From assembly GCA_015064095.1 (NCBI GenBank), contig SVSW01000002.1:27002-91001 (forward strand): a stretch of DNA of 64,000 nucleotides. The letters are read 5' to 3'. Numbering within the stretch: the first letter of the stretch is position 1; each line of letters starts with the position of its first letter. Source of the DNA: Oscillospiraceae bacterium. Lineage in GTDB: Bacteria; Bacillota; Clostridia; Oscillospirales; CAG-272. The translations under genes were made by a program, and so were the position numbers. The notes beneath the pieces were generated by a model. The model was not told the DNA's origin. It saw only the letters and a program-made list of their open reading frames with translations, and made no database searches. This document shows, in pieces, positions 18,598-49,771 of the stretch.

Positions 18598-18610
18598 TCA
18601 AAAAAGTTGA

Positions 18611-20048: not shown

Positions 20049-20050
20049 TT

Positions 20051-21385: not shown

Positions 21386-21389
21386 GCAA

Positions 21390-21432
21390 AAAAAATCTAC
21401 GGTATACCTTTTTCAAGATATACCGTATTTTT
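21390..21432. terminator. bidirectional terminator between convergent genes
   Basis: TACGGTATA..TATACCGTA stem flanked by an A-run and a T-run. Confidence 0.7.
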
Positions 21433-22123: not shown

Positions 22124-23308
22124 ATGAAAATGCAATACCGCCGCGACGCGCGCGGCAATCCCCTCTCCGTGCTCGGCTTCGGCTGTATGCGCTTTCCGCG
22201 CAAGCTCGGCGCCATCGACATGAAAAAAACCGAAAAGCTCATCGTCAAAGCCGTTCGAAACGGCGTCAATTATTTCGACACCGCCTATATCTATCCCGGC
22301 AGCGAGGACGCCCTCGGCACGGTGCTCGAAAAGCACGGCCTGCGCGACCGCGTCAACATTACGACAAAGCTCCCCCACTACCTGATCAAAAGCGTTGATT
22401 CGCTTGACAAAATATTCAACGAGGAGCTGCGCCGCCTGCGCACCGATCACATTGATTATTATCTTATGCACATGCTGACCGATACCGCCACCTGGGATCG
22501 CCTGATCGCCCTCGGCGTTGGCGAATGGCTTGAAAAGAAAAAGGCTTCGGGACAGATCCGTCAGGTCGGATTTTCATATCACGGCGGCTCGGATACCTTC
22601 ATAAAGCTCGTTGACGCATACCCCTGGGATATTTGCATGATACAGTATAATTACATGGACGAGCACAGCCAGGCAGGCCGTCGCGGGCTTGACTACGCAC
22701 ACGGGGCGGGCTTGCCCGTGGTCATTATGGAGCCGCTTCGCGGCGGCCGCCTCGTTTCCCGCTTGCCCGACGGCGCAAAGCGCATTTTTGCCTCGCACCC
22801 CGTTTCGCGCACGCCTGCCGAATGGGCTTTTTCGTGGCTTTACGATCAAAAAAAGGTCACAGTCGTGCTTTCGGGTATGAGCGACGACCGCATGCTTACC
22901 GAAAATCTCATCACCGCCGCGCGCTCGCGCGCAGGTATGCTGACAGACGCCGACCGCGCTATGCTTGCCGACGTTGTCAGCGAGATAAACGCTAAAATGC
23001 AGGTGGGCTGCACGGGCTGCGGATACTGCATGCCATGCCCTCGCGGCGTTGATATTCCCGGCACCTTTGCGGCATATAACCGCCGTTTCTCCGAGGGAAA
23101 ATTCTGGGCGCTGCGCGAATATTTTATGTGCACTGCCCTGCGGCAGAACGCCTCGTCCGCATCGGAATGTATCGGCTGCGGCAAATGCGAGCGCCACTGT
23201 CCGCAAGGAATTGAGATCCGCCGGGAGCTCAAACGCGCCGAGCGCGAGCTTGAGGGCGCGCTTTACAGAACCGCAAAAAAGGTCGCCCGAAAATTCGTAA
23301 AGTTTTAA
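22124..23308 (+). CDS. aldo/keto reductase fused to a C-terminal 4Fe-4S ferredoxin-type domain
   Basis: The AKR N-terminal part (LGFGCMRFP, NYFDTAYIY) is followed by CTGCGYCMPCP and CIGCGKCERHCP clusters. I prefer ATG 22124 (6 nt after AAGGAG) over the TTG 22118 used by the track. Confidence 0.85.
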   Translation: MKMQYRRDARGNPLSVLGFGCMRFPRKLGAIDMKKTEKLIVKAVRNGVNYFDTAYIYPGSEDALGTVLEKHGLRDRVNITTKLPHYLIKSVDSLDKIFNEELRRLRTDHIDYYLMHMLTDTATWDRLIALGVGEWLEKKKASGQIRQVGFSYHGGSDTFIKLVDAYPWDICMIQYNYMDEHSQAGRRGLDYAHGAGLPVVIMEPLRGGRLVSRLPDGAKRIFASHPVSRTPAEWAFSWLYDQKKVTVVLSGMSDDRMLTENLITAARSRAGMLTDADRAMLADVVSEINAKMQVGCTGCGYCMPCPRGVDIPGTFAAYNRRFSEGKFWALREYFMCTALRQNASSASECIGCGKCERHCPQGIEIRRELKRAERELEGALYRTAKKVARKFVKF

Positions 23309-23341: not shown

Positions 23342-23671
23342 TTATATTTGGACGAGGGTTACCTGTTTGTTGCTTTTTTTCGAATATTTCAAAGTATATT
23401 GTGCGCCCTTCGAGATGCCGTCCCATATGATGAGCACGGCATCAGCCATATCAACCATTTGTTGATTGCGTTTTAACGGTGCGGCTCGGCCGTAAAGGTC
23501 GTAGCGCGGGCGCAATATATATTTGGAAAGACGGTGCTTATCAGCATACCTCTCCGCCAAACTGTCAATTCCGTCTGCGCCACCGCTGATAACCGTATCA
23601 ACGTCCGCCGGAATATGCGGAGATAAGTCAAAGTCGGTAATACTCCTTGAACCGACGATCAGCAATTTCAT
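23342..23671 (-). CDS. DUF2493 / SLOG (YspA-DprA-like Rossmann) family protein
   Basis: MKLLIVGSRS...VISGGADGIDSLAERYA...GRAAPLKRNQQMVDMADAVLIIWDG. The start is at ATG 23671. The track ORF extends spuriously to 23866. Confidence 0.65.
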   Translation of the reverse strand: MKLLIVGSRSITDFDLSPHIPADVDTVISGGADGIDSLAERYADKHRLSKYILRPRYDLYGRAAPLKRNQQMVDMADAVLIIWDGISKGAQYTLKYSKKSNKQVTLVQI

Positions 23672-34544: not shown

Positions 34545-35056
34545 TGGGCGCGCTTTATATAATTTTCGCGGCGATACCCGTGCTTGCCGCGATCGCTTCC
34601 TTCTTTCCTCAGCTCACGGGACGCGGCGAGCCGATACCTGTCGGCGTGGTCGAATATACGGTGTTTGCACCGAAAAAATATCTTGTTGGCGGCGCGCTCG
34701 GCATCGGCGGCTTCGGAATACTTTTTCTTCTTTTGACGGACGGTGCTTTGGGTATTGCCGACGAACGCCTTGCGCTTTTGCTGCTTGCCGCCCTTCTTGT
34801 CGGCGAGGTCATATCGGTATATTTCGTTATATATTATTTTTCGTACAGGCTTACGGTGCGCGGCGGTGTGATATTTTACAAATTGCCCGCGCGGCGCGAG
34901 CTTTGCGTGCCTATCCGAGAGCTCGAAGGATATCTGACAAAAGGCAGCTCTGCCGTTTTGTTTTGGAAAGGAAAAAAGATATACGCCGAGGGCGCGGGAA
35001 CGGAAATTTTGCTCTCCGAGCTTGAATCAAGAAACATAAAAAAAGGAAAACCGTAA
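34541..35056 (+). CDS. hypothetical membrane protein
   Basis: 171-aa ORF with 3 hydrophobic helices, translationally coupled to holA. Confidence 0.55.
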   Translation: MMGALYIIFAAIPVLAAIASFFPQLTGRGEPIPVGVVEYTVFAPKKYLVGGALGIGGFGILFLLLTDGALGIADERLALLLLAALLVGEVISVYFVIYYFSYRLTVRGGVIFYKLPARRELCVPIRELEGYLTKGSSAVLFWKGKKIYAEGAGTEILLSELESRNIKKGKP

Positions 35057-35058
35057 AT

Positions 35059-35098
35059 GGCGGAGAATCGTGAAAATTCTCCGCCGCTTTTTTGTTTT
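35059..35098 (+). terminator. rho-independent terminator
   Basis: GGCGGAGAAT..ATTCTCCGCC followed by GCTTTTTTGTTTTTT. Confidence 0.75.
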
Positions 35099-35150
35099 TT
35101 ATTTACAGATAATGATCTCGCACGGCTTGCCCGTTTTTTCGGCGTATTTT

Positions 35151-35519
35151 ATGACCGACGCCGATCACGCGATGCTTGCCGCCGTTGTCGGCGAGATAAA
35201 CGCGAAAATGAAGGTCGGCTGCACGGGCTGCGGATACTGCATGCCCTGCCCCCGCGGCGTTGACATTCCCGGCACCTTTGCGGCGTACAACCGCCGCTTC
35301 TCCGAAGGCAAATTCTGGGCGCTGCGAGAATATTTTATGTGCACTGCCCTTCGGCAAAACGCTTCCTCTGCCTCCGAATGTATCGGTTGCGGCAAATGCG
35401 AGCGCCATTGCCCACAGGGCATAGAGATCCGCCGGGAGCTGAAACGCGCCGAACGTGAGCTTGAGGGCGCGCTTTATAAGACCGCGAAAAAGGTCGCCCG
35501 AAAATTCGTTAAGTTTTAA
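35151..35519 (+). pseudogene. truncated, diverged second copy of the 3' third (ferredoxin domain) of the aldo/keto reductase gene at 22124-23308
   Basis: The translation MTDADHAMLAAVVGEINAKMKVGCTGCGYCMPCP...KKVARKFVKF is nearly identical to aa approx 272-396 of the 22118 ORF. There is no AKR N-domain, no RBS and no promoter. The track ORF's first approx 27 codons (35070-35150) are unrelated read-in. Confidence 0.8.
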
Positions 35520-35561
35520 AAAACGAGGGTTTTATTAAAAATATAAACAAAGCCGCACGAA

Positions 35562-35600
35562 GGGAGACACTTCGCAAGGAAGTTGTCTCCCTTTATTTTA
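35562..35600 (+). terminator. hairpin/terminator at left edge of AT-rich island
   Basis: GGGAGACA..TGTCTCCC followed by TTTATTTTATTT. Confidence 0.6.
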
Positions 35601-35632
35601 TTTGCTAAGAATCAAATTTCACAGAAAATCCA

Positions 35633-35661
35633 TTGAAAAACCTTGAGTTATATGATATAAT
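35633..35661 (+). promoter_or_regulatory. sigma-A promoter TTGAAA-17-TATAAT for the R-M operon
   Basis: TTGAAA 35633-35638, TATAAT 35656-35661. Confidence 0.55.
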
Positions 35662-35703
35662 GTTTTTGTATAACTATGTTTAGATGAAAGCGAGGTTGAA
35701 CCT

Positions 35704-36552
35704 ATGAATCCAGTTTTAAAATATCGTGGCGGAAAATCTCGTGAAATTCCCCGTTTTCTTCAATACATACCGGATGACTTTAACAGATATATTGAGCCTT
35801 TTTTTGGCGGAGGTGCAGTTTATTTCCATCTTGAACCTGAAAATGCTATTATCAATGATGCTAACGAGCGGTTGATGACCTTTTATTCTCAATTGCGAGA
35901 TCAGTATCCACTTATGCGACAGCAGTTGGACGACATTCAGCGGGTGTATGAGTTGAATCAGGCAGAATATAAGAGAATGAAAGCCTTAACACCCAATGAT
36001 AGAGTTCCTAATGCAAATGAGGAACTTTATTATCGTATGAGAGAACTATTTAATCATCCAGACGATACATATTTAGATGGGGTTTTGTATTTCTTTATCA
36101 ATAAAACCGCCTACTCGGGAATGATTAGATACAATAATAACGGTGATTATAATGTTCCGTTCGGTAGATACCCAAATCTTAACACTCGACTTGTAACACA
36201 ACAACACAGCGAGCTTTTGCAAAACGCAGAATTATTCAATCTTGATTATAGTCATATTTTTGATATGGCGCAAGAAGATGATTTTATCTTTTTAGACCCT
36301 CCATACGATTGTGTTTTTAATGACTATGGAAACATCGATATGATGAATGGTTTTGATGAAGCGGAGCATATACGTTTAGCGGATGATTTTAGAAATCTTC
36401 CATGTAGAGCGTTGATGATTATTGGGAAAACTCCTCTCACCGAAGAATTATATGGTGATTTCATTTTTGATGAGTATTACAAAAACTATGCGGTAAACAT
36501 TAGAAATCGTTTCAAGAACGATAAAATGCATATCGTAGTAAAAAATTATTGA
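35704..36552 (+). CDS. Dam-family (D12 class) site-specific DNA adenine N6-methyltransferase
   Basis: KYRGGKS, EPFFGGGAV (SAM binding) and the catalytic DPPY are present. Codon usage is AT-rich and unlike the flanks. Confidence 0.9.
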   Translation: MNPVLKYRGGKSREIPRFLQYIPDDFNRYIEPFFGGGAVYFHLEPENAIINDANERLMTFYSQLRDQYPLMRQQLDDIQRVYELNQAEYKRMKALTPNDRVPNANEELYYRMRELFNHPDDTYLDGVLYFFINKTAYSGMIRYNNNGDYNVPFGRYPNLNTRLVTQQHSELLQNAELFNLDYSHIFDMAQEDDFIFLDPPYDCVFNDYGNIDMMNGFDEAEHIRLADDFRNLPCRALMIIGKTPLTEELYGDFIFDEYYKNYAVNIRNRFKNDKMHIVVKNY

Positions 36553-36562
36553 GGTAATAGGC

Positions 36563-38251
36563 ATGGCAAGACTGGACAATAAAGTTTTGTTTTTTACAAC
36601 TTCACCACGAACTCCGGCAAAGATGATCCCTGAAATTGGATTGCTTTGTGATAAATTCGAAGGAAAACCATGGAATAGAATTACACAAGAACAATATATT
36701 GATGAACTTGCGGAAAGTAACTTTTTCGAGGGAACAGGCTCCCCATCTGATAAAGCATTTAGTGCGCGTGATAGAATAAATCGTGCTCCTAAAGCATTAG
36801 GTTTTGTCGACTTGAAACCAAATATTGCACTAACCGATGCTGGTCGTGCTTTAATTTCGGGAAAAAGACCGCAAGAGATTTTTCTGCGTCAATTACTCAA
36901 ATTTCAATTACCTTCACCGTATCACACAGAAAACACCAAAATAAGCGGTACATTTTTTGTGCGTCCATATTTGGAAGTATTGCGATTAATCTATGACCTT
37001 GAATATTTAACCTTTGATGAGTTAAAAATCTTTGCTGTTCAAATCACAGACTATCATAGGTATGAAGAAGTTAAAGATAAAATCTTGAATTTCAGAAAAG
37101 ATAAAGAGTTACATCGTGGACAGTATAAACGATTTATAAATGATGTATGGACAAATGCCGTCTTAGAAATTCATAATGACAGAATTGCCGAAGGTAGAAC
37201 AAGGACAAGAGAAACAAGAGATGCCAGCATAAATACCTTTGTGAAAACTCAAAAAGGGAATATGCGGGATTATGCTGATGCTTGTTTTAGATATTTGAGA
37301 TTTACCGGACTTGTATCCATCGCACACAAAAGCAGGACGATTTCAATTTTCGATGACAAAAAGAGAGATGTTGAATTTATCCTTGTTAATGTCAATCGTA
37401 ACCCTGTTTTCGTGGATGATGAGGATAATTATAAAGCACATTTATTCGATGCTACCACTCCCGAACTATATACAGACAATGTTGAGAATATTATAGATGT
37501 TATTCTTCGCATGAGTAAGTTGACAAGACGTGATTTGGCGGGCTACGATATTGAATCACTAAAAAATTTGCGAGATGACATTGTAGCTCAACACAAAGAA
37601 AATGTTATTCACGAACAAATTGCTGAAATTAAGTCATATGCACTATATTCAGAAATAATCGATACGTTTAACGAAATCGTTTCGGATGAATATTATGATG
37701 CTCCGCTTATGTTTGAGTATAATACTTGGCGGGCCATGACTATGCTTGATGGTGGTAATATTAAAGGCAACTTCAAATTTGATGATATTGGTCAGCCTTT
37801 GTCTACCGCATCTGGGAATATGCCGGATATTGAGTGCGATTATGATGATTTTTCTTTGGCTGTAGAAGTTACGCTACAGTCTGGACAGCGACAGTACGAA
37901 GCCGAAGGAGAACCTGTCGCACGTCATTATGGTCAGTTAAAGAAAAAGTCCGGTAAAGATACTTATTGCTTATTCATTGCGCCGACAATCAATGCAGCAA
38001 CATTGGCTCACTTCTACGGACTGAATCATTTATCAATCGCTCTTTATGGTGGAAAATCTAAGATAATACCGCTTGAATTAGATCAGTTTATGAAGCTTGT
38101 TGAAAATTCATATAGTTATAAAACTCAACCTACACCGACTGACATTCGTCATTTTCTCGATGGCGCTTTGAAATTATGTGAAAAAGCAGTTGATGAAAAT
38201 AATTGGCGCTGTGGCATTCAAGCCTGTGTTGATATGTGGTTAGCATCATAG
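36563..38251 (+). CDS. AlwI/BstNBI/PleI-family type II(S) restriction endonuclease
   Basis: The translation shares block patterns I recall from this family: TSPRTPAKMIPE..FEGKPW, FSARDRINRAPKALGFV, FLRQLLKFQLPSP, MRDYADACFRYLRFTGL, ASGNMPDIE..VEVT..GQRQYEAEGEPVARHY and LFIAP. Confidence 0.75.
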   Translation: MARLDNKVLFFTTSPRTPAKMIPEIGLLCDKFEGKPWNRITQEQYIDELAESNFFEGTGSPSDKAFSARDRINRAPKALGFVDLKPNIALTDAGRALISGKRPQEIFLRQLLKFQLPSPYHTENTKISGTFFVRPYLEVLRLIYDLEYLTFDELKIFAVQITDYHRYEEVKDKILNFRKDKELHRGQYKRFINDVWTNAVLEIHNDRIAEGRTRTRETRDASINTFVKTQKGNMRDYADACFRYLRFTGLVSIAHKSRTISIFDDKKRDVEFILVNVNRNPVFVDDEDNYKAHLFDATTPELYTDNVENIIDVILRMSKLTRRDLAGYDIESLKNLRDDIVAQHKENVIHEQIAEIKSYALYSEIIDTFNEIVSDEYYDAPLMFEYNTWRAMTMLDGGNIKGNFKFDDIGQPLSTASGNMPDIECDYDDFSLAVEVTLQSGQRQYEAEGEPVARHYGQLKKKSGKDTYCLFIAPTINAATLAHFYGLNHLSIALYGGKSKIIPLELDQFMKLVENSYSYKTQPTPTDIRHFLDGALKLCEKAVDENNWRCGIQACVDMWLAS

Positions 38252-38285
38252 CGTTTATATTCAAACGGTTTAACGCAAACCATTC

Positions 38286-38316
38286 AAAGCTCGTCGTTTT
38301 TCGACGAGCTTTCTTT
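38286..38316 (+). terminator. rho-independent terminator of the R-M operon
   Basis: AAAGCTCGTCG-TTTT-TCGACGAGCTTT followed by CTTT. Confidence 0.7.
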
Positions 38317-38540
38317 AAATTAATGCGAAATCTCATGCAAAACCCTCGGTCACCTTTACACGAAACATACATGAAAGTGTCATAGTAGGTTACACACTTT
38401 CAAAAGGGGTGTAACAATAAAAAGCGGAACAGCCAATAACTATACCGCATAACGAAATCAATTATTCAGTTTAGATACAAGAGCCACCCATTTGGTCCCC
38501 CTCTCTCCGAAAGGAAGGCTTTTTGGCTTTCCGTAGAACA

Positions 38541-38577
38541 AAAAAGAGCCCCCCTTTTTAAGAGAGGCTCTTTTTTT
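38541..38577 (-). terminator. terminator downstream of the aro operon
   Basis: AGAGCC..GGCTCT stem flanked by an A-run and a T-run. Confidence 0.65.
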
Positions 38578-38582
38578 CGTTT

Positions 38583-39608
38583 TTATAATTTATCCGCGAT
38601 GTCGTAGATAAGTCTTTCCGTCTTTTCCCAGCCGAGGCACGGGTCGGTGATCGACTTGCCGTATACGTCGTTTTCATCGATCTTCTGGCAGCCGTCCTCG
38701 ATATAGCTCTCGATCATAAGTCCCTTGACGAGCGAACGGATATCGTTCGAGTGCGTCAGGCTGTAAAGAACGTCCTTCGATATTCTTATCTGCTCCTCGT
38801 ACTTCTTGCCCGAATTTGCGTGGTTCGTATCGATCACGACACCCGGATTTTTAAGACCCGACGCGGCATAAAGACCGTGAAGCGAAATAAGATCCTCATA
38901 GTGATAGTTCGGCATTGATTTGCCGTGCTTATCGACGTATCCGCGCAAGATCGCGTGAGCGTACTCGTTTCCCGACGAGTTGACCTCCCAGCCGCGATAA
39001 ATGAACGTGTGCGCGTGCTGTGCCGCCGTGATCGCGTTCATCATGACCGAAAGATCGCCGCCCGTTGGATTTTTCATGCCGACGGGGATATCAAGTCCGC
39101 TTGCCGTCAGGCGGTGGTCCTGATTTTCCACCGAGCGCGCACCGATCGCAACGTACGACAGAAGATCCGAAAGATAACGGTAGTTCGCAGGGTAAAGCAT
39201 CTCATCGGCACAGCAGAGCCCCGTTTCCGTCAGAGCGCGGATATGCAGGTGGCGGATCGACACGATCCCCTTCAGCATATCGGGCTTTTCCATCGGATCG
39301 GGCTGGTGGAGCATTCCCTTATAGCCGTCACCCGTCGTTCTCGGCTTATTCGTGTAGATACGCGGGATTATAACTATTTTATCCTCGACCTTCTCCTGAA
39401 CGCGCGCTAAGCGGTGGATATAATCCATAACTGCGTCCTCTCGGTCTGCCGAGCACGGCCCGATGACGAGCGCGAATTTATTTGATTCGCCCGTAAATAT
39501 CTTCTTTATCTCCTCGTCGCGCGCGGCTTTTTTCTCTGCCGCCTCGGCTGAAAGGGGGTACATTTCTTTTATTTCCTTCGGTATCGGGAGTTTTCTTACG
39601 AATTCCAT
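38583..39608 (-). CDS. 3-deoxy-7-phosphoheptulonate (DAHP) synthase, class I (AroF/G/H-like)
   Basis: 341 aa with VIGPCSADRED, IIPRIYTNKPRTT..GYKGMLHQPDP and IESYIEDG. Confidence 0.9.
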   Translation of the reverse strand: MEFVRKLPIPKEIKEMYPLSAEAAEKKAARDEEIKKIFTGESNKFALVIGPCSADREDAVMDYIHRLARVQEKVEDKIVIIPRIYTNKPRTTGDGYKGMLHQPDPMEKPDMLKGIVSIRHLHIRALTETGLCCADEMLYPANYRYLSDLLSYVAIGARSVENQDHRLTASGLDIPVGMKNPTGGDLSVMMNAITAAQHAHTFIYRGWEVNSSGNEYAHAILRGYVDKHGKSMPNYHYEDLISLHGLYAASGLKNPGVVIDTNHANSGKKYEEQIRISKDVLYSLTHSNDIRSLVKGLMIESYIEDGCQKIDENDVYGKSITDPCLGWEKTERLIYDIADKL

Positions 39609-39635
39609 TTTTATTATTCTCCTATGCTTTAATTT

Positions 39636-40493
39636 TTATTTTTTATCGAAAAGCGTGCGGCGTGCGCCGGCTTTTCTCATCGTTTCCTGCATTTTTTCGC
39701 GTTCTCCGACGGCGAGCGCTGCGCGAAATCTCTCAAATTCCGCGGAAAACGCGTCCATCTGTTCGAGCAGCTTTTCGCGGTTCAAAAGGAAAAGCTCGCT
39801 CCACATGACGTCGTTTATCTTCGAGATCCTCGTGAGATCTCGGAACGAGTCGCCCGTGTATTTCTCAAGTCCCTCTTTTTCGTTGCATGTCATAAGAGTG
39901 ACTGCTATGACGTGCGTGAGCTGTGAAAGAAACGCGATCATTTCATCGTGCTCTGCCGGCGTAAGCTCGCTGATCCTCGAAAAGCCGAGCTCCTCGCCGA
40001 GCTTCTTTGCAAGCTCGACTGCCTCTTTCGTGTTCTTCTTTGTTGGGGTGACAATAAAGTTCGCGCCCTCGAAGACCCGATCGTCGGCGTACTCCACTCC
40101 GCTTCGCTCGCGGCCTGCCATCGGGTGCGCGGCGATAAACTCAACGTCGGGACGCAAAATGCTTTGCACCCGCCCGACGATCTCCCCCTTTACGCCCGTG
40201 ACGTCCGTGATAACGGTGTTCGGCGAGAGCAGCTGCTGGTTTTTCTCGATCCACTCGACGAACGCGCCGGGATACAGCGCGAAGATAACGAGCTCTGCCT
40301 CGGCTATCATTTTTTCGTCGATGCCCACTTCTCCTTTGTTTATTATTCCTTTTTCCTTTGCGAACTCAATATCCTCTTGTCGCAAGGTCAAGGCGTTGAC
40401 GGTATATCCTCAGCGCGACAGCGCCATGGCGTAGCTTCCGCCCATCAGTCCGAGTCCGACTATTAAAATATTCGTATTTTTATCAAGCTTCAT
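39636..40493 (-). pseudogene. tyrA: prephenate dehydrogenase interrupted by a single in-frame TGA at codon 28
   Basis: ATG (complement of 40491-40493) gives MKLDKNTNILIVGLGLMGGSYAMALSR, then TGA (complement of 40410-40412). The same frame continues GYTVNALTLRQEDIEFAKEKG... for 257 codons to the stop at 39636. The track shows only the 251-aa ORF restarting at TTG 40391. Confidence 0.75.
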
Positions 40494-41697
40494 ATGTCTT
40501 TATCTCTATTCCAAGTGATGCAAGTTTCGCAAAAAAGTCGGGAAAGCTCTTTGCAACGGCCTCCGCGCCGTTTATAACTCCGCCCGTTTTGGTGCAAAGC
40601 ACCGAAAGCGCCATCACTATCCTATGATCGTTATGGCCGCACAGCTCCTCCTTCGGCGCGTGCAGGCTCGCAGGATATACGACCACCGAATCTCCCTTTA
40701 CCTTAACCGCAGTGCCGAATTTTCGAAGCTCCGCCGCCATTGCCTCGGCGCGATCGCTCTCCTTTATTTTAAGACGTGCCGTGCCTGTGAAGATTCCGCC
40801 GTGCTTTGCCGCTGCCGCCGCGAACAAAACGGGTCCGAGGTCGGGGCAATCGCCGATATGCACCGTCGGTATCCCCAGATCAAGCATTTTTAAATAATCG
40901 CCGCACACGCTGTCGCCCTGAAGGCTGCCCCGGCGCAAGCCGTCGATCTCGACCTCGCCGCCGAGCGTATTCAGCGCCGAAAAGAACGAAGCTCCCGAAT
41001 AGTCGCCCTCGACCTCGGTGACGCGCGGCATATATTTTTGACCGCCTGCGATCTTTATTTTATGGTCGCCCTCGAATTTTACGCTCACGCCGAACTCGGC
41101 AAGCGATGCGACCGTCATATCTATATACGGACGGCTCACAACGGGCGGCGTAAGCTCGATCTCACTGTCACCGTCAAGCAGCGGCAACGAGAAAAGAAGG
41201 CCGCTGACGAACTGGCTGCTTATGTCGCCTGCTATAATATACTTTCCCGATCTCAGCGGTCCGCGAAGGACGACCGAGGTTTTATCCTGGGAAAAAACGA
41301 GATCTTTCTCCTTTGCCAGCTTTGAATAGACGCTCATGGGCCGCGCAAGCAACGACGGTGCACCCGTCATTATCACGTTCTTGCCCGAAAGCCACGCAAG
41401 CGGCGTTAAAAATCTGAACGTGCTTCCGCTTTCGCGGCAGGAAAGCGCCTCCCGCGGCGCGGCGGTCATTATATCAGTCCCGTGAACGCGGACGTTTCCG
41501 TTTTCGTATTCAAATCGCGCGCCGAGTGCCGTCAGGCAGTCTATCGTTGCTCTGACGTCGTCGCAATCCGAAACGCCGCGCACGACACTCTCTCCCTGTG
41601 CCAGCGCGGCGCAGATGAGCAGGCGGTGCGCCATGCTCTTTGACGGGGGTGCTGAGATCCTCCCGACCGCGCGCGAGGGGTTTATTTTTACTTTCAT
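40483..41697 (-). CDS. aroA: 3-phosphoshikimate 1-carboxyvinyltransferase (EPSP synthase)
   Basis: PSKSMAHRLLICAAL, then the LFAAAAA..GG region and DHRIVMAL. The start is at ATG 41697. Confidence 0.92.
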   Translation of the reverse strand: MKVKINPSRAVGRISAPPSKSMAHRLLICAALAQGESVVRGVSDCDDVRATIDCLTALGARFEYENGNVRVHGTDIMTAAPREALSCRESGSTFRFLTPLAWLSGKNVIMTGAPSLLARPMSVYSKLAKEKDLVFSQDKTSVVLRGPLRSGKYIIAGDISSQFVSGLLFSLPLLDGDSEIELTPPVVSRPYIDMTVASLAEFGVSVKFEGDHKIKIAGGQKYMPRVTEVEGDYSGASFFSALNTLGGEVEIDGLRRGSLQGDSVCGDYLKMLDLGIPTVHIGDCPDLGPVLFAAAAAKHGGIFTGTARLKIKESDRAEAMAAELRKFGTAVKVKGDSVVVYPASLHAPKEELCGHNDHRIVMALSVLCTKTGGVINGAEAVAKSFPDFFAKLASLGIEIKTYEA

Positions 41698-41701
41698 TTC
41701 C

Positions 41702-42130
41702 TTACCTGCCCAAAAGAATGTCCAAAGCCTCAAGATATCCGTCTGTTCCCTTGCCCTTTACGGTGGCGATACATTCGTCGCGTACGTAGCTCACCTGACG
41801 GAAGTCTTCCCTGTCTTCCACCTTCGAGATATGCACCTCGACTGTCGGTATCTTCACGGCGGCGAGCGCATCACGCAGAGCAACTGACGTGTGAGTATAA
41901 GCGCCGGGGTTTATGACTATCCCGTCGGTCTTTTCAAAATACGCCGCCTGTATCCTATCGACGAGCGCGCCCTCGTGGTTCGACTGATATATCTCGACCG
42001 TGACGCCTCGCTCCGCGGCGTGAAATTCCACCTTTCGGCAAAGCTCGGCATAGGTCTCTTTTCCGTAAATATCAGGCTCGCGTATCCCGAGCATATTTAT
42101 ATTAGGTCCGTTTATGACTAATATCTTCAT
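41702..42130 (-). CDS. aroQ: type II 3-dehydroquinate dehydratase
   Basis: MKILVINGPNINMLGIREPDIYG and NPGAYTHTSVALRDA motifs. Confidence 0.92.
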   Translation of the reverse strand: MKILVINGPNINMLGIREPDIYGKETYAELCRKVEFHAAERGVTVEIYQSNHEGALVDRIQAAYFEKTDGIVINPGAYTHTSVALRDALAAVKIPTVEVHISKVEDREDFRQVSYVRDECIATVKGKGTDGYLEALDILLGR

Positions 42131-43365
42131 TTTAAAAAATCCTCTTCTATTTTATTTACCGTGTGCTCTACCGACTCGTCGGTGACTACTCTTACGTCGG
42201 ACGTCGACACGTATATTCCGTATCTTTCCGCGTAGCGCTTTCTTATCGCCTCGGCGCTCGATGCCGTCGGTCTGTTTTCTGTCGGAACGAGCTTTTCGAT
42301 CGCGCGGTCAAGAAAATATATCCTTCCGCTTCTTTTCAGCGCGCGTACGTTTTCCTGCCTCAATATCGCGCCACCGCCCGTGGCTATGACAGCTCCCGTG
42401 ACCGTGTTCGCCGTTTGTCGTACGACATCGCTCTCGATTTCGCGAAAGCCCGCCTCGCCGCACTCGGCGAAGATATCACTGATCTTTTTGCCCGTTTTTT
42501 TCTCTATCAGCACGTCGGTATCGTAAAATTCGCGCCCGAGTTTTATCGCAAGCGCCCGTCCGACCGTCGTTTTTCCCGATGCGGGCATTCCCGTCAAAAC
42601 TATATTTTCTTTATCCGATCTTATTTTTGCATAGATCTTCTCGGTCGGCGCGTCCGCCTCATTGCCGACGAACAGACGCGACGCACGAACTCCCTGCGAA
42701 ACGAGCATATAAAGTCCGCCCTCCGCCGCTATTCCTCTTTCCTTTGCGTTCAGGACAAGATCCGTGCGAAGCGGATTATAGACCGCGTCCAAAACTCCCG
42801 AAAGGCGCTCAAAATGCGATATATCTATCGCGCAGCCGTCGGGGTTCGGGAACATTCCGCACGGGGTGGTATTTATTATCACCTCGGCGTCCGAGTGGTT
42901 CTTCACCGCCTCGCCGTACGTTATCACGCCTTCGCCCGCGCTTCGGCTGACTGTCAATATCTCCCTTGCGCCAAGCTCTGAGCAGACGGCTCTTGCGGTC
43001 CTTGACGTGCCGCCCGTGCCGAGTATCAACACTTTTTTGCCGTAAAGCTCGATGCCTGCGTGGGCGATCAGCTCCGAAAGGCCGTAAAAATCGGTATTAT
43101 ATCCGTAAAGCTTGCCGCCGCGATTGACAACGGTATTGACCGCGCCGATATTTTTTGCGCGTGCGTCGATCTCGTGAAGGAACGGTATGACCGCCTGCTT
43201 ATACGGGATCGTGACGTTCACGGCGCAAAAATCCGCAGCTCTCATAAAGCCTTCAAGCTCGCTCGGTGCAAGCTCGCAAAGCTCGTATTCATAATCGGCG
43301 CACGCCGCGTGAATCTCGCGCGAAAAGCTGTGACCCAGCCTCTCGCCGATAAGTCCGTATTTCAT
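42127..43365 (-). CDS. bifunctional shikimate dehydrogenase / shikimate kinase fusion
   Basis: The N-terminal AroE part has GERLGHSFS, NVTIPYK and NTD. The C-terminal AroK part has the P-loop GMPASGKTTVGRALA and DTD. The start is at ATG 43365. Confidence 0.88.
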   Translation of the reverse strand: MKYGLIGERLGHSFSREIHAACADYEYELCELAPSELEGFMRAADFCAVNVTIPYKQAVIPFLHEIDARAKNIGAVNTVVNRGGKLYGYNTDFYGLSELIAHAGIELYGKKVLILGTGGTSRTARAVCSELGAREILTVSRSAGEGVITYGEAVKNHSDAEVIINTTPCGMFPNPDGCAIDISHFERLSGVLDAVYNPLRTDLVLNAKERGIAAEGGLYMLVSQGVRASRLFVGNEADAPTEKIYAKIRSDKENIVLTGMPASGKTTVGRALAIKLGREFYDTDVLIEKKTGKKISDIFAECGEAGFREIESDVVRQTANTVTGAVIATGGGAILRQENVRALKRSGRIYFLDRAIEKLVPTENRPTASSAEAIRKRYAERYGIYVSTSDVRVVTDESVEHTVNKIEEDFLK

Positions 43366-43367
43366 CT

Positions 43368-44435
43368 TTACTCCTTTTTGCCGCCTGCGAGAAGATCGTA
43401 TATAACGATCGCCGTGAGGCAATCGACGACTGCACGCGCGCGATGGATTATCGCAGGATCGTGCCGACCCTTAAGATCCAAGACCGCGTTTTCGCCCGTC
43501 TTTATATCGACCGTTCTCTGGCTTTTGAATATCGAGGGCGTTGGGCGCACCGCGCACCGAAAAACGATCGGCATTCCGTTCGTTATTCCCCCGTTTATGC
43601 CGCCTGCGTTGTTCGTTTCGGTCCTGATCTCTGCGCCCTCGGAATATATCGGATCGTTTGCCTCGCTGCCGCGCATCTTTGAGATCCCGAAGCCCGCGCC
43701 GAACTCAACTCCCTTGATCCCCGGGATCGAGAACATCGCGTGCGAGATCAGGCTCTCGACGCTGTCAAACCACGGCTCTCCGAGCCCCGTCGGCACGCCG
43801 TAAACGTAAGTTTCAAGCACGCCGCCGACAGAATCGCCCTCACTTGCCGCCGCTTCGATCTGCGACTTCATTTTCTCACCGATATTTGCGTCAAGCGTCG
43901 GAAAATCCGTTGTGTCAAGGTATTTTATATCGGAAACGACATCAGAAAATCCTCTGTCCTCAATCTCTGCGAGCGAAGCGATATGCGTGCCGATATAAAT
44001 TCCCTTTTTATTCAGCTCCGAGAGCATTATCGCGCCCGCCGCAACGATCGGTGCCGTCAGACGTCCCGAAAAATGTCCGCCGCCGCGACGGTCCTGATAT
44101 CCGCCGTATTTATACTCTGCCGTAAGATCGGCGTGACCCGGACGCGCAAGTGTTCCGTAATCGGAGCTTCTTTTATTTTCGTTCGGTATCAAAATGCAAA
44201 GCGGAGCTCCCGTGGCGCGTCCCTCGTACTCGCCGCTGACGATCGAATACGCGTCACGCTCGACGCGTGCGGTCGATATCTTGCCCGACGGGCGGCGCTG
44301 AGTGAGCTTTTTTTCGATCAGCTCGCGGTCAATGGCCGTGCCGGGCGCAAGCCCGTCGATGACGGCGCCTATCATCTCACCGTGGCTCTCGCCGAAAAGC
44401 GTGATGCTCACGTTATTTCCGAAAGTATTTTTCAT
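43368..44435 (-). CDS. aroC: chorismate synthase
   Basis: FGESHG, RPGHAD and GRHDP motifs. Length 355 aa. Confidence 0.93.
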   Translation of the reverse strand: MKNTFGNNVSITLFGESHGEMIGAVIDGLAPGTAIDRELIEKKLTQRRPSGKISTARVERDAYSIVSGEYEGRATGAPLCILIPNENKRSSDYGTLARPGHADLTAEYKYGGYQDRRGGGHFSGRLTAPIVAAGAIMLSELNKKGIYIGTHIASLAEIEDRGFSDVVSDIKYLDTTDFPTLDANIGEKMKSQIEAAASEGDSVGGVLETYVYGVPTGLGEPWFDSVESLISHAMFSIPGIKGVEFGAGFGISKMRGSEANDPIYSEGAEIRTETNNAGGINGGITNGMPIVFRCAVRPTPSIFKSQRTVDIKTGENAVLDLKGRHDPAIIHRARAVVDCLTAIVIYDLLAGGKKE

Positions 44436-45418
44436 TTTAAAAATCCTTTTATCTCGTTTTTAAATCTCTCGATCGGCATCTTCCGTATCTCGCACGAGCC
44501 GATCTTTTCTACGTACACGACCGAGATCTCGTCACCGTCGAGCTTTTTATCGTGCCCGATCGCCGCGATCACCTTATCTGCATCGACTTCGATCTTTGTC
44601 GGCAGGCCGAGCGTTTTGAGGACCTTTTTGAGCCTTTCCTTTTCCGCACACACGGGTATCATTCCGAGCGCCACGCACTCGCCGTGATAAAGCCCCGTGA
44701 CGCTCTCTATCCCGTGCCCGACCGTGTGGCCGAAATTGAGGATCCTTCGCTGTCCCTTTTCCTTCTCGTCCGCCTCGACGACCGCCTTTTTTATCATAAG
44801 CGAACGGTATATAACGGTGTCGATATCAGCTCCGTTCTCTATCAGCTCGAAAAGCTCGCGGTCCGAGGTCGCCGCCATTTTTACGGCTTCGGCAAGCCCT
44901 GCCGAGATCTGGCGTTTATCTAAGGTCACAAGCGTGTCGGGGTCTATTACGACCGCCTTCGGCTGATAAAATGCGCCGACGATATTCTTTATTCCGCCGA
45001 GATTTATCGCGGTCTTGCCGCCGATCGACGAATCGACCTGCGAAAGAAGCGTCGTCGGTACTCCGTAAAAATCAATTCCGCGCATATACGACGCGGCGCA
45101 AAAGCCCGCAAGGTCGCCGCAAACACCGCCGCCGACTGCGACGACGCAATCCGTGCGCGTAAATCCGAGCGAAAGGAGAGTTTTTTGGACCTTTTCAAAC
45201 ACCTCAATGCTCTTTGATCCCTCACCCGTCGGCACGGTCAGAATATGTGCGTCCTTTGCCTGACGGGCGACCGCCTCGGCGTACTCCTTCGGCACTCCGT
45301 CGTCCGTGAGCACGAGCGTTTTGCGGTCAAGATCAAATATCTTGCCCGCGCGCAAAAGCGCGCCGCGCTCTATTATTATATTGTAAGAATTTTTCCCGAG
45401 TTCAACGGTTAATTTCAT
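44432..45418 (-). CDS. aroB: 3-dehydroquinate synthase
   Basis: GGGVCGDLAGF, NFGHTVGH and the metal-ligand context are present. The start is assumed at the internal Met (MKLTVELG) of the track ORF, whose TTG start is at 45436. Confidence 0.9.
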   Translation of the reverse strand: MKLTVELGKNSYNIIIERGALLRAGKIFDLDRKTLVLTDDGVPKEYAEAVARQAKDAHILTVPTGEGSKSIEVFEKVQKTLLSLGFTRTDCVVAVGGGVCGDLAGFCAASYMRGIDFYGVPTTLLSQVDSSIGGKTAINLGGIKNIVGAFYQPKAVVIDPDTLVTLDKRQISAGLAEAVKMAATSDRELFELIENGADIDTVIYRSLMIKKAVVEADEKEKGQRRILNFGHTVGHGIESVTGLYHGECVALGMIPVCAEKERLKKVLKTLGLPTKIEVDADKVIAAIGHDKKLDGDEISVVYVEKIGSCEIRKMPIERFKNEIKGFLK

Positions 45419-45432
45419 TTTTCGTCCTCTTT

Positions 45433-46530
45433 TCAATCTCTGTGGCGGTACGACCCGATAAGCTTTAGCTTTTCGCAGCAGCTCCCAAGCTCCGCGAGCA
45501 TCTTTTCGCCCTCGTCACTGTCTATATTTCCCTCTGCCTCAACGTAGAAATAATACTGCCAAAGCAGCCTTTTGTCAGGCCTGCTTCGAAGCGACTGCAT
45601 ATTAAAGCCGTGCTTTCCTATTATATCTATCGCCTGCGCGAGCGAGCCCGCCTCGTTTTTGACGGTGAACATAAGTATAAATCTCATATCCATTCCGCGT
45701 GCCCCGAAATATCGGTTCCGCGCCGCCGAGAGGATAGCAAAGCGCGTTGTATTGTTCGACGATGCATTTATCGCGCGCGCCGCGACCGTAAGACCGTATT
45801 TTTTGCCCGCCTGCTCGGACGCGATCGCCGCAACCGTCGGATCTCCGAGCGCCCTCACTCTCTCCGCTGCGAGCGCGGTGTTCGCAAACTCAAGCGTATC
45901 GTATCCGTGCGCTCTTATATATTCCTCGCACTGATGCAGCGCCTGCGGGTGGCTGACGACCGTTTTTATCTCCCTCGGATCAGCTCCCGGCAATGTCAGA
46001 AGATCCTGCACGATCGCAAGATCGTACGTTCCGTTTATATAAAGCGTTCCCGAATAAAGCAGGTCCGCGACCGTGCCGACCTCGCCTGCCGAGCTGTTCT
46101 CGATCGGAAGCACGACAGCGTCGCACTCGCCGCGCTCAACGGCTTCGTACGCTTCGGGGAAATCGGCGTACCCGATCTTCTCGGCTGACGGAAATATCTT
46201 CTCCGCCGCGATATGCGCAAACGCGCCCTCAGTGCCGCTGTACGCGATCTTCATGCCCTCGATCAATCGGCTCTGATAGTGCCGCGACACTTCCATGGTC
46301 TTTCTGAGAAACTGCACGTAGCATTCGCGGATCTCAGGATCGGCATCGGAAATAAATTCGGAGTTTTTCGCGATCAGTGCGTCCTCACGCGCGCCGTCGT
46401 ATACCGGCAGAGCGTTCTCCTTTTTGTATTCCGCGGCAAGCCTTGCAGCTTCCATTCGGCGCAGAAAAAGACGCGCCATCTCGCGATCGACTTCGTCTAT
46501 TATCTTTCTCGCTTTTTCCAGTTTGTTCAT
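45433..46530 (-). CDS. pheA: bifunctional chorismate mutase / prephenate dehydratase (P-protein)
   Basis: The N-terminal AroQ-type CM helix is IDEVDREMARLFLRRMEAA. It is followed by a PDT domain (IENSSAGEV, TRF) and a C-terminal ACT domain. The start is at ATG 46530. Confidence 0.88.
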   Translation of the reverse strand: MNKLEKARKIIDEVDREMARLFLRRMEAARLAAEYKKENALPVYDGAREDALIAKNSEFISDADPEIRECYVQFLRKTMEVSRHYQSRLIEGMKIAYSGTEGAFAHIAAEKIFPSAEKIGYADFPEAYEAVERGECDAVVLPIENSSAGEVGTVADLLYSGTLYINGTYDLAIVQDLLTLPGADPREIKTVVSHPQALHQCEEYIRAHGYDTLEFANTALAAERVRALGDPTVAAIASEQAGKKYGLTVAARAINASSNNTTRFAILSAARNRYFGARGMDMRFILMFTVKNEAGSLAQAIDIIGKHGFNMQSLRSRPDKRLLWQYYFYVEAEGNIDSDEGEKMLAELGSCCEKLKLIGSYRHRD

Positions 46531-46544
46531 ATCGATCTCCTTTG

Positions 46545-46558
46545 TTAACATTGTTAAC
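46545..46558. promoter_or_regulatory. palindromic operator TTAACATTGTTAAC, copy 1 (in the pheA operon leader)
   Basis: Perfect 6-1-6 palindrome TTAACA-T-TGTTAA. It lies between the predicted +1 and the RBS of pheA. Confidence 0.55.
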
Positions 46559-46567
46559 TTGGTGTTT

Positions 46568-46596
46568 ATTATACTACGCACTTTCCCCCTTGTCAA
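46568..46596 (-). promoter_or_regulatory. consensus sigma-A promoter of the aro super-operon
   Basis: On the minus strand, TTGACA is the complement of 46591-46596 and TATAAT is the complement of 46568-46573, with a 17-nt spacer. Confidence 0.65.
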
Positions 46597-46617
46597 GAGA
46601 AAAAGTCAATAAAACCC

Positions 46618-46645
46618 TTGATTTTTTTAATTTTTGTGGTATAAT
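46618..46645 (+). promoter_or_regulatory. promoter of the TetR gene (TTGATT-16-TATAAT)
   Basis: TTGATT 46618-46623, TATAAT 46640-46645. Confidence 0.5.
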
Positions 46646-46658
46646 TAACATTGTTAAC
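46645..46658. promoter_or_regulatory. palindromic operator TTAACATTGTTAAC, copy 2 (overlaps -10/+1 of the TetR promoter)
   Basis: An identical 14-mer exactly 100 bp from copy 1. Confidence 0.55.
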
Positions 46659-46676
46659 AAGCTTTGGAGGTCAATA

Positions 46677-47246
46677 ATGCACGATAACGAAGAATATCTC
46701 GTTCCCGACGAGCTGCAAAAGGCTCTCATCATTGCCGGAATGCGCGAGATCGAACGCCACGGGCTTGCGGACTTTTCCTTGCGCCGCGTTGCCGCGGATT
46801 GCTCGGTCTCATGTGCCGCGCCGTACCGTCACTTCAAAAATAAAAGCGAGCTTATACTCGCCATAATCTTCTATGTAAATCAGCGCCGTGAGCTGCTTGA
46901 AAATCAGATAATTGAGTGCTTTGAGGGCGATATTCGCCGTACCGTGACTGAGCTTTGCGTTGCAAACGTCAGATTTTTCGCGGCAAATCCGAATTTTCGG
47001 CATATTATGCTGCTTGACGCCGCCTCGCTCGACGAAGATCAGCGCGCAGCACAAAGCCGTATGTTTTCAAGGCTTTCGGAGCTTATCTCCTCTCTTACGG
47101 GCGATAAGGACGAGGGTGAACGCCGCGCCGTTGCCGCGCGGGCGATGATCCTCGGCTTCACTCATATGCTCGGCTCGGGCGAGCTTCAAAATAACGATAA
47201 GATCTTCGACGATATAAGAAGATCCTTTGAGAAGATCTTTGAGTGA
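46677..47246 (+). CDS. TetR/AcrR family transcriptional regulator
   Basis: The N-terminal HTH is FSLRRVAADCSVSCAAPYRHFKNKSEL. The start is at ATG 46677 behind GGAGG. The track ORF start 46377 is an antisense read-through extension. Confidence 0.88.
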   Translation: MHDNEEYLVPDELQKALIIAGMREIERHGLADFSLRRVAADCSVSCAAPYRHFKNKSELILAIIFYVNQRRELLENQIIECFEGDIRRTVTELCVANVRFFAANPNFRHIMLLDAASLDEDQRAAQSRMFSRLSELISSLTGDKDEGERRAVAARAMILGFTHMLGSGELQNNDKIFDDIRRSFEKIFE

Positions 47247-47280
47247 GAGCTTGCCGCATAAAAATTAAATAAAAAAGCAA

Positions 47281-47325
47281 AGAACAGGCATACAGGAGTT
47301 TTTCCTGTATGCCTGTTCTTTTATT
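47281..47325. terminator. bidirectional terminator (TetR gene / upp)
   Basis: A 16-bp stem, AGAACAGGCATACAGG..CCTGTATGCCTGTTCT, with flanking A and T runs. Confidence 0.8.
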
Positions 47326-47965
47326 ATTTAGTTCCGAACAAACGGTCGCCCGCGTCGCCAAGACCCGGAAGAATATAGCCGTTTTCGTTAAGGCAACGGT
47401 CAAGAGTTGAAACGTATATGTTTACATCGGGGTGAGTCTCCGCAACCTTGGAAACTCCCTCGGGTGCTCCGATTATTGCCATAAACTTGATATGCTTGCA
47501 GCCCTTGTCTTTAAGAAGCTGAATAGCGTCGCACGCGCTTCCGCCCGTTGCCAGCATCGGGTCTACCAGCATTACAAGCTTGTTTTCAATGCCCTGGGGC
47601 AGCTTGCAGTAGTAGGTTTCGGGTATCAGGGTCGCCTCGTCACGGTACATACCGATATGTCCTACCTTTGCCAAGGGGAAAAGCACGTGTATTCCGTTGA
47701 CCATTCCAAGACCTGCGCGGAGGATCGGTACTATTACTATCGAATTGTCCGCAACCACGGTCTGCGTGCAGGTTTCAAGGGGGGTCTTGACCTCAATTTC
47801 GGTCGTCGGAACGCCGTCTTTGAGGCTTTCATACGTCATAAGCGTTGTGATCTCCTCAACCAGCTCACGAAATTCCTTCATGCTCGTCTTTTCGTCGCGC
47901 AAAATTGCGATCTTATGACGGATCAGCGGGTGATTGAAGATAACAACATTTTCATAGTTCTTCAT
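47324..47965 (-). CDS. upp: uracil phosphoribosyltransferase
   Basis: 213 aa with HPLIRHKIAILRD and the PRPP loop VDPMLATGGS. Confidence 0.93.
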   Translation of the reverse strand: MKNYENVVIFNHPLIRHKIAILRDEKTSMKEFRELVEEITTLMTYESLKDGVPTTEIEVKTPLETCTQTVVADNSIVIVPILRAGLGMVNGIHVLFPLAKVGHIGMYRDEATLIPETYYCKLPQGIENKLVMLVDPMLATGGSACDAIQLLKDKGCKHIKFMAIIGAPEGVSKVAETHPDVNIYVSTLDRCLNENGYILPGLGDAGDRLFGTK

Positions 47966-49376: not shown

Positions 49377-49642
49377 TTTTACTCTCCTGTTCTTTTTTTC
49401 TTTCACGCCTTATTTTATTTTTTGGCCGTGTTCATTTCATTTTAACACCGTTGTCGTAAAAAGTCAAGGTTTGTAAAAAAATTATAAAAATTTTGTCTGC
49501 GGCTTTTCAACCGTAAAACAAAAAATGCTTTTTGCCACAGCAAAAAGCTACCTTACCTCTTCACTTTTCACTATTACCTTTTACCTCTGAAAAATATTCT
49601 CATCGGAGGGAGAGAAAAGTGAAGAGTGAAGAGTGAAAAAGT

Positions 49643-49676
49643 AAAAACAGACAAGCTTCGAAAGAAGCTTGTCTGT
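49643..49676 (-). terminator. terminator after tRNA-Ser
   Basis: ACAGACAAGCTTC-GAAA-GAAGCTTGTCTGT with a T-run on the minus strand. Confidence 0.75.
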
Positions 49677-49679
49677 TTT

Positions 49680-49771
49680 TGGCGGAGAGAAAGGGATTCG
49701 AACCCTTGTTGGGGTATAAGCCCAAACACGATTTCCAGTCGTGCGCCTTAGACCAGCTCAGCCATCTCTCC
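49680..49771 (-). tRNA. tRNA-Ser (anticodon GGA), long variable arm, CCA encoded
   Basis: The reverse complement is GGAGAGATGGCTGAGCTGGTCTAAGGCGCACGACTGGAAATCGTG...GGTTCGAATCCCTTTCTCTCCGCCA. The anticodon loop is CTGGAAA. Confidence 0.95.

Follow-up and report, generated by a model that had tools for sequence, protein, structure and literature searches.

Homology-facilitated illegitimate recombination and short-patch illegitimate joins with filler DNA have been described for naturally transformable bacteria. The locus analysed here lies in a 64,000-nucleotide stretch of an Oscillospiraceae chromosome (the window) and resembles such integration in containing DNA of a close relative, a 3–8-nt microhomology junction between unrelated genes and truncated pieces, with no integrase. 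It differs in that the tract concerned is permuted, no homologous anchor is demonstrated and at least two junctions are found within 500 bp. The term illegitimate recombination is that used in PMC6382021.

In a second class of described systems, a restriction-modification (R-M) system inserts with a long target duplication, such that the repeats directly flank the R-M genes and both align to one empty-site target (Furuta, Abe & Kobayashi 2010, PMC2853133). The window likewise contains a type II R-M system without mobility genes beside a direct repeat of host sequence, tens to hundreds of bp in size. Unlike that class, the window repeats flank 12 kb of housekeeping DNA with the R-M genes (35610–38250) outside them, and the two copies are 11–12% apart since one of them comes from another lineage.

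Three further systems share individual features with the locus. As with integrative elements that target a gene's 3' end and generate attL/attR sites, the window contains one intact and one orphan gene 3' end in direct orientation; unlike them, it lacks an integrase, native housekeeping genes occupy the space between the copies and the intact copy carries the native 3' end. Homeologous-recombination mosaics are similar in their adjoining blocks of sharply different divergence (pS of 0.11 versus 0.30 in the window), but in the window the blocks meet at an illegitimate scar containing pieces of genes instead of at a clean crossover inside homologous DNA. The R-M genes themselves match the minimal mobile type II R-M cassettes (promoter-M-R order, 2.64 kb, low GC, unrelated intergenic sites and many genera), and nothing about the window cassette is unusual against that background. 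The comparisons described below suggest that the orphan 3' end is probably a non-functional scar of DNA from a sister lineage that was built in by illegitimate (microhomology) joining without an integrase.

Two copies of the reductase 3' end

The repeat pair consists of the end of an intact gene and a second, orphan copy to its right.

22124–23308, + strand: resident intact aldo/keto reductase (AKR) and 4Fe-4S dicluster gene, 394 aa from the ATG at 22124 (Pfam Aldo_ket_red and Fer4_9/17; exact protein on record)
22943–23308, + strand: first repeat copy, the resident 3' end, comprising the last 121 codons and the stop (88–89% identical to the orphan)
23342–23671, − strand: resident SLOG/DUF2493 (YAcAr) gene, convergent on the AKR gene (Pfam YAcAr/DNA_processg_A; NCBI name DUF2493)
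35152–35526, + strand: orphan, a sister-type AKR 3' fragment of 121 codons, the stop and 7 nt (96.27% over 375 nt to positions 2206–2580 of contig L098)

A preliminary description of the window had reported a repeated reductase 3' end in the same orientation, with most differences at third codon positions and only a handful of peptide changes, and the alignment bears out each of these observations. Window positions 35152–35519 match 22943–23308, the last 121 codons of the AKR/ferredoxin gene, at 88–89% identity. The exact alignment that had been proposed as a check, ungapped and anchored at both TAA stops, contains 329 identical bases out of 372 (88.4%), and the accompanying dS between the two copies is 0.616. 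The 43 differences are split 4/3/36 over codon positions 1/2/3, and 5 of the 121 aligned residues differ (R/H, D/A, S/G, Q/K and R/K). Upstream of ∼35150, identity is at background (∼6/30). Downstream, the similarity stops at the stop codon, as had been described, save for a shared 9-mer (ACGAGGGTT) that occurs only twice in the 64 kb, at 23352 and 35523, once past each stop. The copy of the 9-mer at 23352 falls within the terminal codons of the resident SLOG gene (..NKQVTLVQI*), whose stop codon is 33 nt from that of the resident AKR gene. The window itself matches a JGI metagenome contig and an NCBI Ruminococcaceae/Oscillospiraceae MAG. The region around the orphan (34900–35720) is 100% identical among contigs from three samples (two JGI and one ENA/MEGAHIT); because three samples and two assemblers yield the same junction, it is neither an assembly artefact nor a chimeric assembly.

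The origin of the orphan is evident from comparison with a sister lineage. The 90%-identity protein cluster of the reductase has one other full-length member (P0256), which is encoded on contig L098 of ENA sample ERZ28593489. The sister sequences used here are unbinned metagenome contigs (L089/L090, L098 and L179/L180), placed in one lineage by their co-occurrence in the same two samples and by the lack of other close variants in the 90% clusters. The orphan peptide has no amino acid difference from P0256, and the C-terminus of P0256 contains all five residues that distinguish the orphan from the resident protein. The orphan DNA matches the sister AKR 3' end at 96.3% identity and the resident one at 88–89%, with a dS of 0.175 to the sister, and the sister's other genes are only 86–94% identical to those of the window. 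Three-way site patterns contain 33 resident-unique, 4 orphan-unique and 6 sister-unique sites. Over the first 197 nt, the orphan and sister differ at 2 positions and the resident and sister at 17. Outgroup rooting of the three AKR 3' ends yielded 6 versus 4 resolvable sites, with outgroups that are 57–68% identical and saturated. The identities and site patterns show that the orphan is sister-type and not a duplicate of the resident gene, in agreement with the earlier proposal that it is foreign and comes from a related organism. All four orphan-unique changes are synonymous and located at third codon positions, which indicates that the piece evolved within a working gene until very recently.

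The resident copy occupies its native position. The gene order aspS-tmk-AKR is common to the window and L098 (90.8% nt identity). Between the resident and sister AKR genes, 8.1% of nucleotides differ ahead of the repeat and 8.6% in its first 197 nt, and the best breakpoint is found at codon 338, with no step at codon 272, where the repeat begins; only the final 57 codons show excess divergence. That no change in divergence coincides with the start of the repeat marks the resident copy as native.

The 12-kb interval separating the two copies had been described as housekeeping DNA without an integrase, and Pfam analysis of its major ORFs agrees. The interval contains SLOG/DUF2493, HTH regulator, ABC/FtsX, GNAT, MBOAT, comM-like, birA, HAD, rsmI, holA and hyp170 genes. 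The label hyp170 denotes the 170-aa membrane protein gene to the left of the scar. The comM-birA-HAD-rsmI-holA-hyp170 segment is colinear with the sister at ∼88% nt identity, and a GNAT-MBOAT-comM-birA block is also found in the more distant contig L094. No integrase or transposase is observed in 22.9–47.3 kb, as covered by Pfam analysis of the major ORFs in 23.3–35.1 kb and precomputed Pfam hits in 35–47 kb.

These features bear on a local origin of the repeat, either by duplication within the genome or by an att-type element whose replacement 3' end displaced the native one. The direct orientation, the involvement of a gene 3' end and the pairing of one intact with one orphan copy are what such an origin would leave, and the whole-segment dS between the resident 3' end and the sister is high (0.68). 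Nevertheless, a local origin is extremely improbable: the orphan is far nearer the sister than the genome's other genes are, the resident excess divergence is confined to the final 57 codons rather than starting where the repeat starts, and the intervening DNA is housekeeping, syntenic with the sister and free of integrases.

A reversed assignment, with the orphan as the original 3' end pushed aside and the resident one acquired by import, was also considered on account of the dS values (0.68 versus 0.18). It is ruled out by the smooth divergence at the boundary and by the near identity of the orphan to the sister over the first 197 nt.

Junctions of the scar and limits of the R-M cassette

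The orphan is located in a stretch of 553 bp (35057–35609) that belongs neither to the native left flank nor to the R-M cassette on the right. The elements of this stretch and of the cassette are as follows.

35058–35092, + strand: terminator T1 past hyp170, with a hairpin (35058–35086) and T-run; the window-type left flank ends here (terminator scan)
35093–35159, − strand: SLOG remnant, the last ∼19 codons and stop, sister-type (blastn to L179 898–961, 89.6% over 67 nt, reverse)
35151–35159: illegitimate junction ATGACCGAC (base-level comparison of the window, sister SLOG and sister AKR)
35523–35545, − strand: putative C-terminus trace of a resident-type SLOG gene convergent on the donor AKR (9-mer ACGAGGGTT; reads ..NKTLVF* versus ..NKQVTLVQI* in the resident gene)
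35546–35609, + strand: spacer with hairpin T2 (GGGAGACA..TGTCTCCC, 35562–35592, followed by a T-rich run; sequence read)
35610–38250, + strand: mobile type II R-M cassette of 2.64 kb, promoter-M-R (Pfam; span matched in L096 and L097)
35633–35661, + strand: cassette promoter, TTGAAA-17-TATAAT (promoter scan)
35704–36552, + strand: D12/Dam-family methyltransferase (Pfam)
36563–38251, + strand: AlwI-family endonuclease (Pfam)
38251–38582: spacer between the stop codons of the endonuclease and DAHP synthase genes (matched by same-strain contigs only; no Rfam family)

On the left side, the window is homologous to sister contigs L089–L093 (∼87% nt) up to the hyp170 stop codon (35056) and no further. 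Past hyp170, the sister has an mreB gene in convergent orientation 13 bp away, and the orphan, the R-M genes and the aro operon are all absent from that site; the single AKR 3' end of the sister is found at the tmk locus. The right-hand neighbour of hyp170 changes among genomes, with mreB there in the sister and TIM/PGK in L094, where the window has the scar. An RsmI-anchored genome scan for an empty site found none; the closest species representative is 83% identical and does not keep the rsmI gene order.

Next to terminator T1, the scar begins with a SLOG remnant that the preliminary description did not mention, identified by blastn at 35093–35159 and fused to the orphan. Its minus strand encodes SVIKYAEKTGKPCEIIICK, compared with SVIKYAEKTGKPCKIIYK in the sister SLOG protein; over the 67 nt, the DNA sequences are set apart by 4 substitutions and a single 3-nt indel. 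The resident SLOG protein shares ∼38% amino acid identity with its sister counterpart. The divergence of the remnant fits either of the two divergence classes described below, and the remnant could be native, in which case no circular intermediate would be needed to explain it. A native full-length SLOG gene of the sister type, or its upstream region, is not found in the 64 kb.

The SLOG remnant and the AKR fragment are fused head to head at ATGACCGAC, with both genes truncated. This sequence is common to the SLOG remnant, where it is the reverse complement of GTCGGTCAT, and to AKR codon 272 (cTGACnGAC). The microhomology (TGACnGAC) matches at 7 of 8 positions, and position 35156 differs in all three AKR sequences. 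Two unrelated sequences meet in this microhomology join, which creates the ATG of the orphan reading frame.

A further junction may follow the orphan. The 9-mer at 35523 may be the trace of a resident-type SLOG gene that was convergent on the AKR gene in the donor; the estimated probability that two ∼90-nt flanks share a 9-mer by chance is ∼3%. If the trace is real, at least one additional joint would exist, near 35545, the reductase piece would be filler DNA and the history of the scar would involve several steps. The spacer at 35546–35609 is matched solely by same-strain contigs among the fetched loci.

To the right of the spacer, low-GC (∼36%) R-M genes are present as had been reported. They do not begin immediately beside the orphan, however: the cassette starts at 35610, 90 nt right of the orphan stop and past the second hairpin, with ∼83 nt of unrelated sequence in between. 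The same cassette, over exactly 35610–38250, is found in its two closest relatives, L096 (92.8% nt identity) and L097 (85.3%), where it adjoins a membrane-protein gene and a pckA-like gene, respectively, with flanks unrelated to those of the window. Neither relative contains an AKR fragment or terminal repeats beside the cassette. Endonuclease homologs with 76–97% identity occur in many genera, and the 90% cluster of the methyltransferase has 2757 members. Direct or inverted repeats bounding the cassette amount to short, chance-level matches, no repeat of the orphan is found to its right, and the plasmid and phage collections contain no match to 35093–38585. The R-M cassette is a separate, independently mobile unit with fixed ends.

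The orphan had been interpreted as donor flank that was co-imported with the R-M island from an organism in which the R-M genes sit directly downstream of the reductase. This explanation is improbable, although the orphan is indeed foreign and sister-type, lies 90 nt from the cassette within the same tract and derives from a gene whose downstream side varies, with SLOG there in the window but a different gene in the sister. The limits of the cassette are the same in three genomes, the closest relatives lack the fragment, and unrelated DNA with its own hairpin intervenes. In addition, the sister AKR gene is followed by a terminator and then a different gene, with no R-M genes within the 164 nt available past it. 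The co-import explanation also leaves the SLOG–orphan fusion and the sister-type aro operon unexplained.

A circularly permuted sister-type tract

The aro operon and the right flank of the tract lie past the cassette.

38583–40391, − strand: DAHP synthase and prephenate dehydrogenase genes (Pfam)
40478–47278, − strand: sister-type tract with EPSPS, DHQase, SDH/SK, chorismate synthase, DHQ synthase and PDT genes, and tetR on the + strand (46677–47246) (L179/L180)
47279–47323: terminator hairpin T3, followed by upp (47324–47965, − strand), the right flank of the tract (sequence read; UPRTase Pfam hit)

The 6.8-kb aro-tetR segment (40478–47278), which went unmentioned in the preliminary description, is as sister-type as the orphan, with 96.03% nt identity to L179/L180 over 6801 nt. 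Both sister aro contigs end 5 nt past the EPSP synthase stop (window 40478), and the 90% cluster of the DAHP synthase contains the window's protein only; the sister-type comparison right of the orphan covers 40478–47278, and continuity of the tract across 35527–40477 is assumed. Homology between the window and the sister stops at 47278, where the sister's own 23-nt hairpin starts. Rfam matches in 34–50 kb are limited to one tRNA, and none are found in L179 or L098.

Divergence from the sister falls into two classes, which rest on only three regions. Nei-Gojobori dS values are 0.07–0.21 for the seven aro and tetR genes (pooled pS of 0.113) and 0.25–0.68 for aspS, tmk, AKR, comM, birA, HAD, rsmI, holA and hyp170, with a pooled pS of 0.298 over the eleven left-hand gene segments. 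At a pS of 0.156, the orphan is compatible with the aro-tetR class (p = 0.22) and not with the left class (p = 0.004), and it therefore belongs with the DNA to its right.

The outer ends of this DNA are neighbours in the sister, a relationship that was also absent from the earlier account. The sister order is aro operon, tetR, one 23-nt terminator hairpin and SLOG. The right end of the window tract (47278) corresponds to L179 position 996 and its left end (35093) to position 961, and these positions are 34 nt apart across that single hairpin. Inside the tract, the SLOG–AKR joint (35151–35159) is novel. Since its outer ends are adjacent in the sister, the 12.2-kb tract (35093–47278) is a circular permutation of the sister arrangement. 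Its place in the window is between two different hairpins, T1 past hyp170 and T3 before upp, which are flanked by the same GC-T-run and A-run-GC sequences as the sister's hairpin.

A topology of adjacent outer ends and a novel inner joint matches a circular, tandem or concatemeric intermediate that was opened at the hairpin. A history of this kind is tentatively preferred for the scar. It would have begun with a sister-type segment reaching from the aro operon to the SLOG 3' end that was circularized, or became a tandem or a concatemer, and whose closure junction trapped the AKR 3' piece as filler; the piece itself would be a ∼375–395-bp AKR/ferredoxin fragment from a sister-like lineage. The circle would then have opened at the tetR/SLOG terminator hairpin and been inserted between T1 and T3 by way of the A-runs and T-runs beside these hairpins. 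The R-M cassette could have entered the tract before or after the tract was inserted. The transfer would have run from the sister to the window lineage, because the window contains truncated pieces and the sister contains intact SLOG and AKR genes of that type. The broader proposal that the aro operon and the R-M cassette moved together between sister species as an integrase-free circle inserted at terminator hairpins is considerably more doubtful.

The same segment could have arrived without a circle. A sister-type segment would have entered through homologous recombination in conserved genes and been trimmed later through microhomology, with the SLOG remnant native and the permutation reflecting an older rearrangement at the terminator hairpin. 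This history is rather unlikely. The changing neighbours of hyp170 (mreB, TIM/PGK and the scar) indicate a clade that rearranges often at this point, the divergence of the SLOG remnant fits no single class, and the scar contains at least two and perhaps three junctions, all of which would accord with such a course. However, more independent events would be required, the position of both tract ends on either side of one 23-nt sister hairpin would be a coincidence, and the sister-type SLOG gene from which a native remnant would derive is missing, with its upstream region, from the 64 kb.

The orphan reading frame

The orphan ORF comprises 122 codons from the ATG at 35151–35153, and JGI and ENA call a product of 149 aa. 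The preliminary description was correct that the orphan lacks an RBS and promoter and follows a terminator, which lies 60 nt upstream; its statement that the orphan has no start does not hold, since an ATG is present at the junction. The NCBI (MBE6599758.1), JGI and ENA pipelines all annotate the orphan as a gene.

A working, stand-alone 4Fe-4S ferredoxin-like gene of 122–149 aa under selection would agree with the intact frame, the presence of both Cys clusters (Pfam Fer4_9/17) and an ATG, the exclusively synonymous orphan-specific changes and the unanimous annotation. Such a gene is nonetheless very improbable. The frame has no signals for expression, its ATG is a by-product of the junction, and the sister has no ORF at the site. 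Database entries for short AKR C-terminal proteins, where traced to their contigs, are full-length genes split by frameshifts and do not form a stand-alone family, and the synonymous pattern is equally expected if the fragment was cut very recently from a working gene. The orphan ORF is most likely non-functional and not expressed, as judged from these sequence features.

A stand-alone family of C-terminal proteins, or recurrent orphans, had been suggested by the many homologs of the orphan peptide with lengths of 138–206 aa. This suggestion was rejected: the N-termini of these homologs correspond to a conserved internal Met, and the two that were traced, both on longer contigs, are pieces of contiguous, frameshift-split AKR genes. 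In a metagenome scan with the orphan peptide, the matches listed include distant AKRs (≤72%) and do not include the window's own contig.

The scar exemplifies a known process and is nothing out of the ordinary, apart from being unusually easy to read, and no new mechanism is required: illegitimate joining and an ordinary R-M cassette produced a mosaic chromosome. It provides a base-resolution view of sister DNA built into a gut Oscillospiraceae chromosome without a mobility gene. For annotation, it illustrates that an intact-looking Fe-S ORF with purely synonymous divergence can be a dead scar and still be annotated as a gene. Caution also applies to interpretation, in that the orphan adjoins an R-M island but its arrival as the flank of that island is not demonstrated. 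If the aro operon is xenologous, aromatic amino-acid biosynthesis was replaced or regained from a close relative, ∼3 kb from the replication origin. If the aro operon and the cassette did move together as a circle, this would point to terminator hairpins as recombination hot spots, and possibly to breakage by restriction from the cassette as the trigger.

Gene content around the AKR and SLOG genes

The sister, a related lineage known from unbinned metagenome contigs, has aspS immediately beside tmk and lacks the following window genes.

18295-21427: SCIFF peptide gene, its radical-SAM maturase gene and an Orn/Lys/Arg decarboxylase gene

Positions 1-669 of the sister contig L098 match window 17626-18294, and the match resumes from L098 position 688 at window position 21428. 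Window 18295-21427 is a further indel that separates the window lineage and the sister.

A small SLOG/DUF2493 (YAcAr) gene accompanies both the resident AKR (aldo/keto reductase and 4Fe-4S) gene and the orphan, a sister-type 3′ fragment of the AKR gene. These SLOG genes are of two types, which are only ∼38% identical.

Window 23342-23671: resident-type SLOG gene, convergent on the AKR gene at a distance of 33 nt
L179 626-955: sister-type SLOG gene on a sister aro contig

Upstream of the sister SLOG gene, L179 (positions 1-625) contains two direct repeat units of ∼280-300 nt each. Each unit carries a TATAAT promoter-like region and a 43-nt hairpin-terminator, near-identical between the units (CGTTTTTCGGTGCGTGGCTTCGGCTGCGCACTTTTTT). 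The repeat units match no Rfam family and may be duplicated small RNA genes.

L179 and a second aro contig, L180, derive from two independent samples, and both stop 5 nt past the EPSP synthase stop codon (window 40478), the point at which the PDH and DAHP synthase genes come next in the window. Because the contigs of both samples break at the same point, a structural polymorphism or repeat is suggested in the sister population exactly at the EPSP synthase end.

Replication origin and restriction-site words

Four sequence features within window 49400-53000 place the replication origin ∼3 kb beyond the right end of the sister-type tract: AT-rich DNA at 49.4-50.0 kb, a cumulative GC-skew minimum at ∼52-53 kb and two genes.

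49683-49771, minus strand: tRNA
50010-51467: dnaA

In a maximal-order Markov model of the whole window, GAGTC/GACTC is strongly under-represented (15 observed, 52 expected), a depletion that suggests GAGTC-specific restriction, past or ongoing, in the window lineage. Over the same 64,000 nt, GATC is over-represented (456 versus 349 expected) and GGATC is close to expectation (120 versus 140). The GATC density is 1.1 per kb in the R-M cassette, compared with 6-9 per kb in host DNA.

Annotation of AKR fragments

The orphan region (window 35070-35519) is entered in public annotations as a protein-coding gene; the annotated N-termini come from reading across both the terminator and the remnant of the SLOG gene.

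NCBI: MBE6599758.1, hypothetical protein, 135 aa
JGI/ENA: 149 aa, Fer4 Pfam hits

AKR/Fer4 homologs in other Clostridia are broken into two to three ORFs (e.g. 121 + 107 + 148 aa).

L085/L086 5243-6447: split AKR/Fer4 gene
L088 5211-6432: split AKR/Fer4 gene

The split genes are pseudogenes or else the product of frameshift errors that recur, and they raise the apparent count of short 'ferredoxin' proteins in databases.
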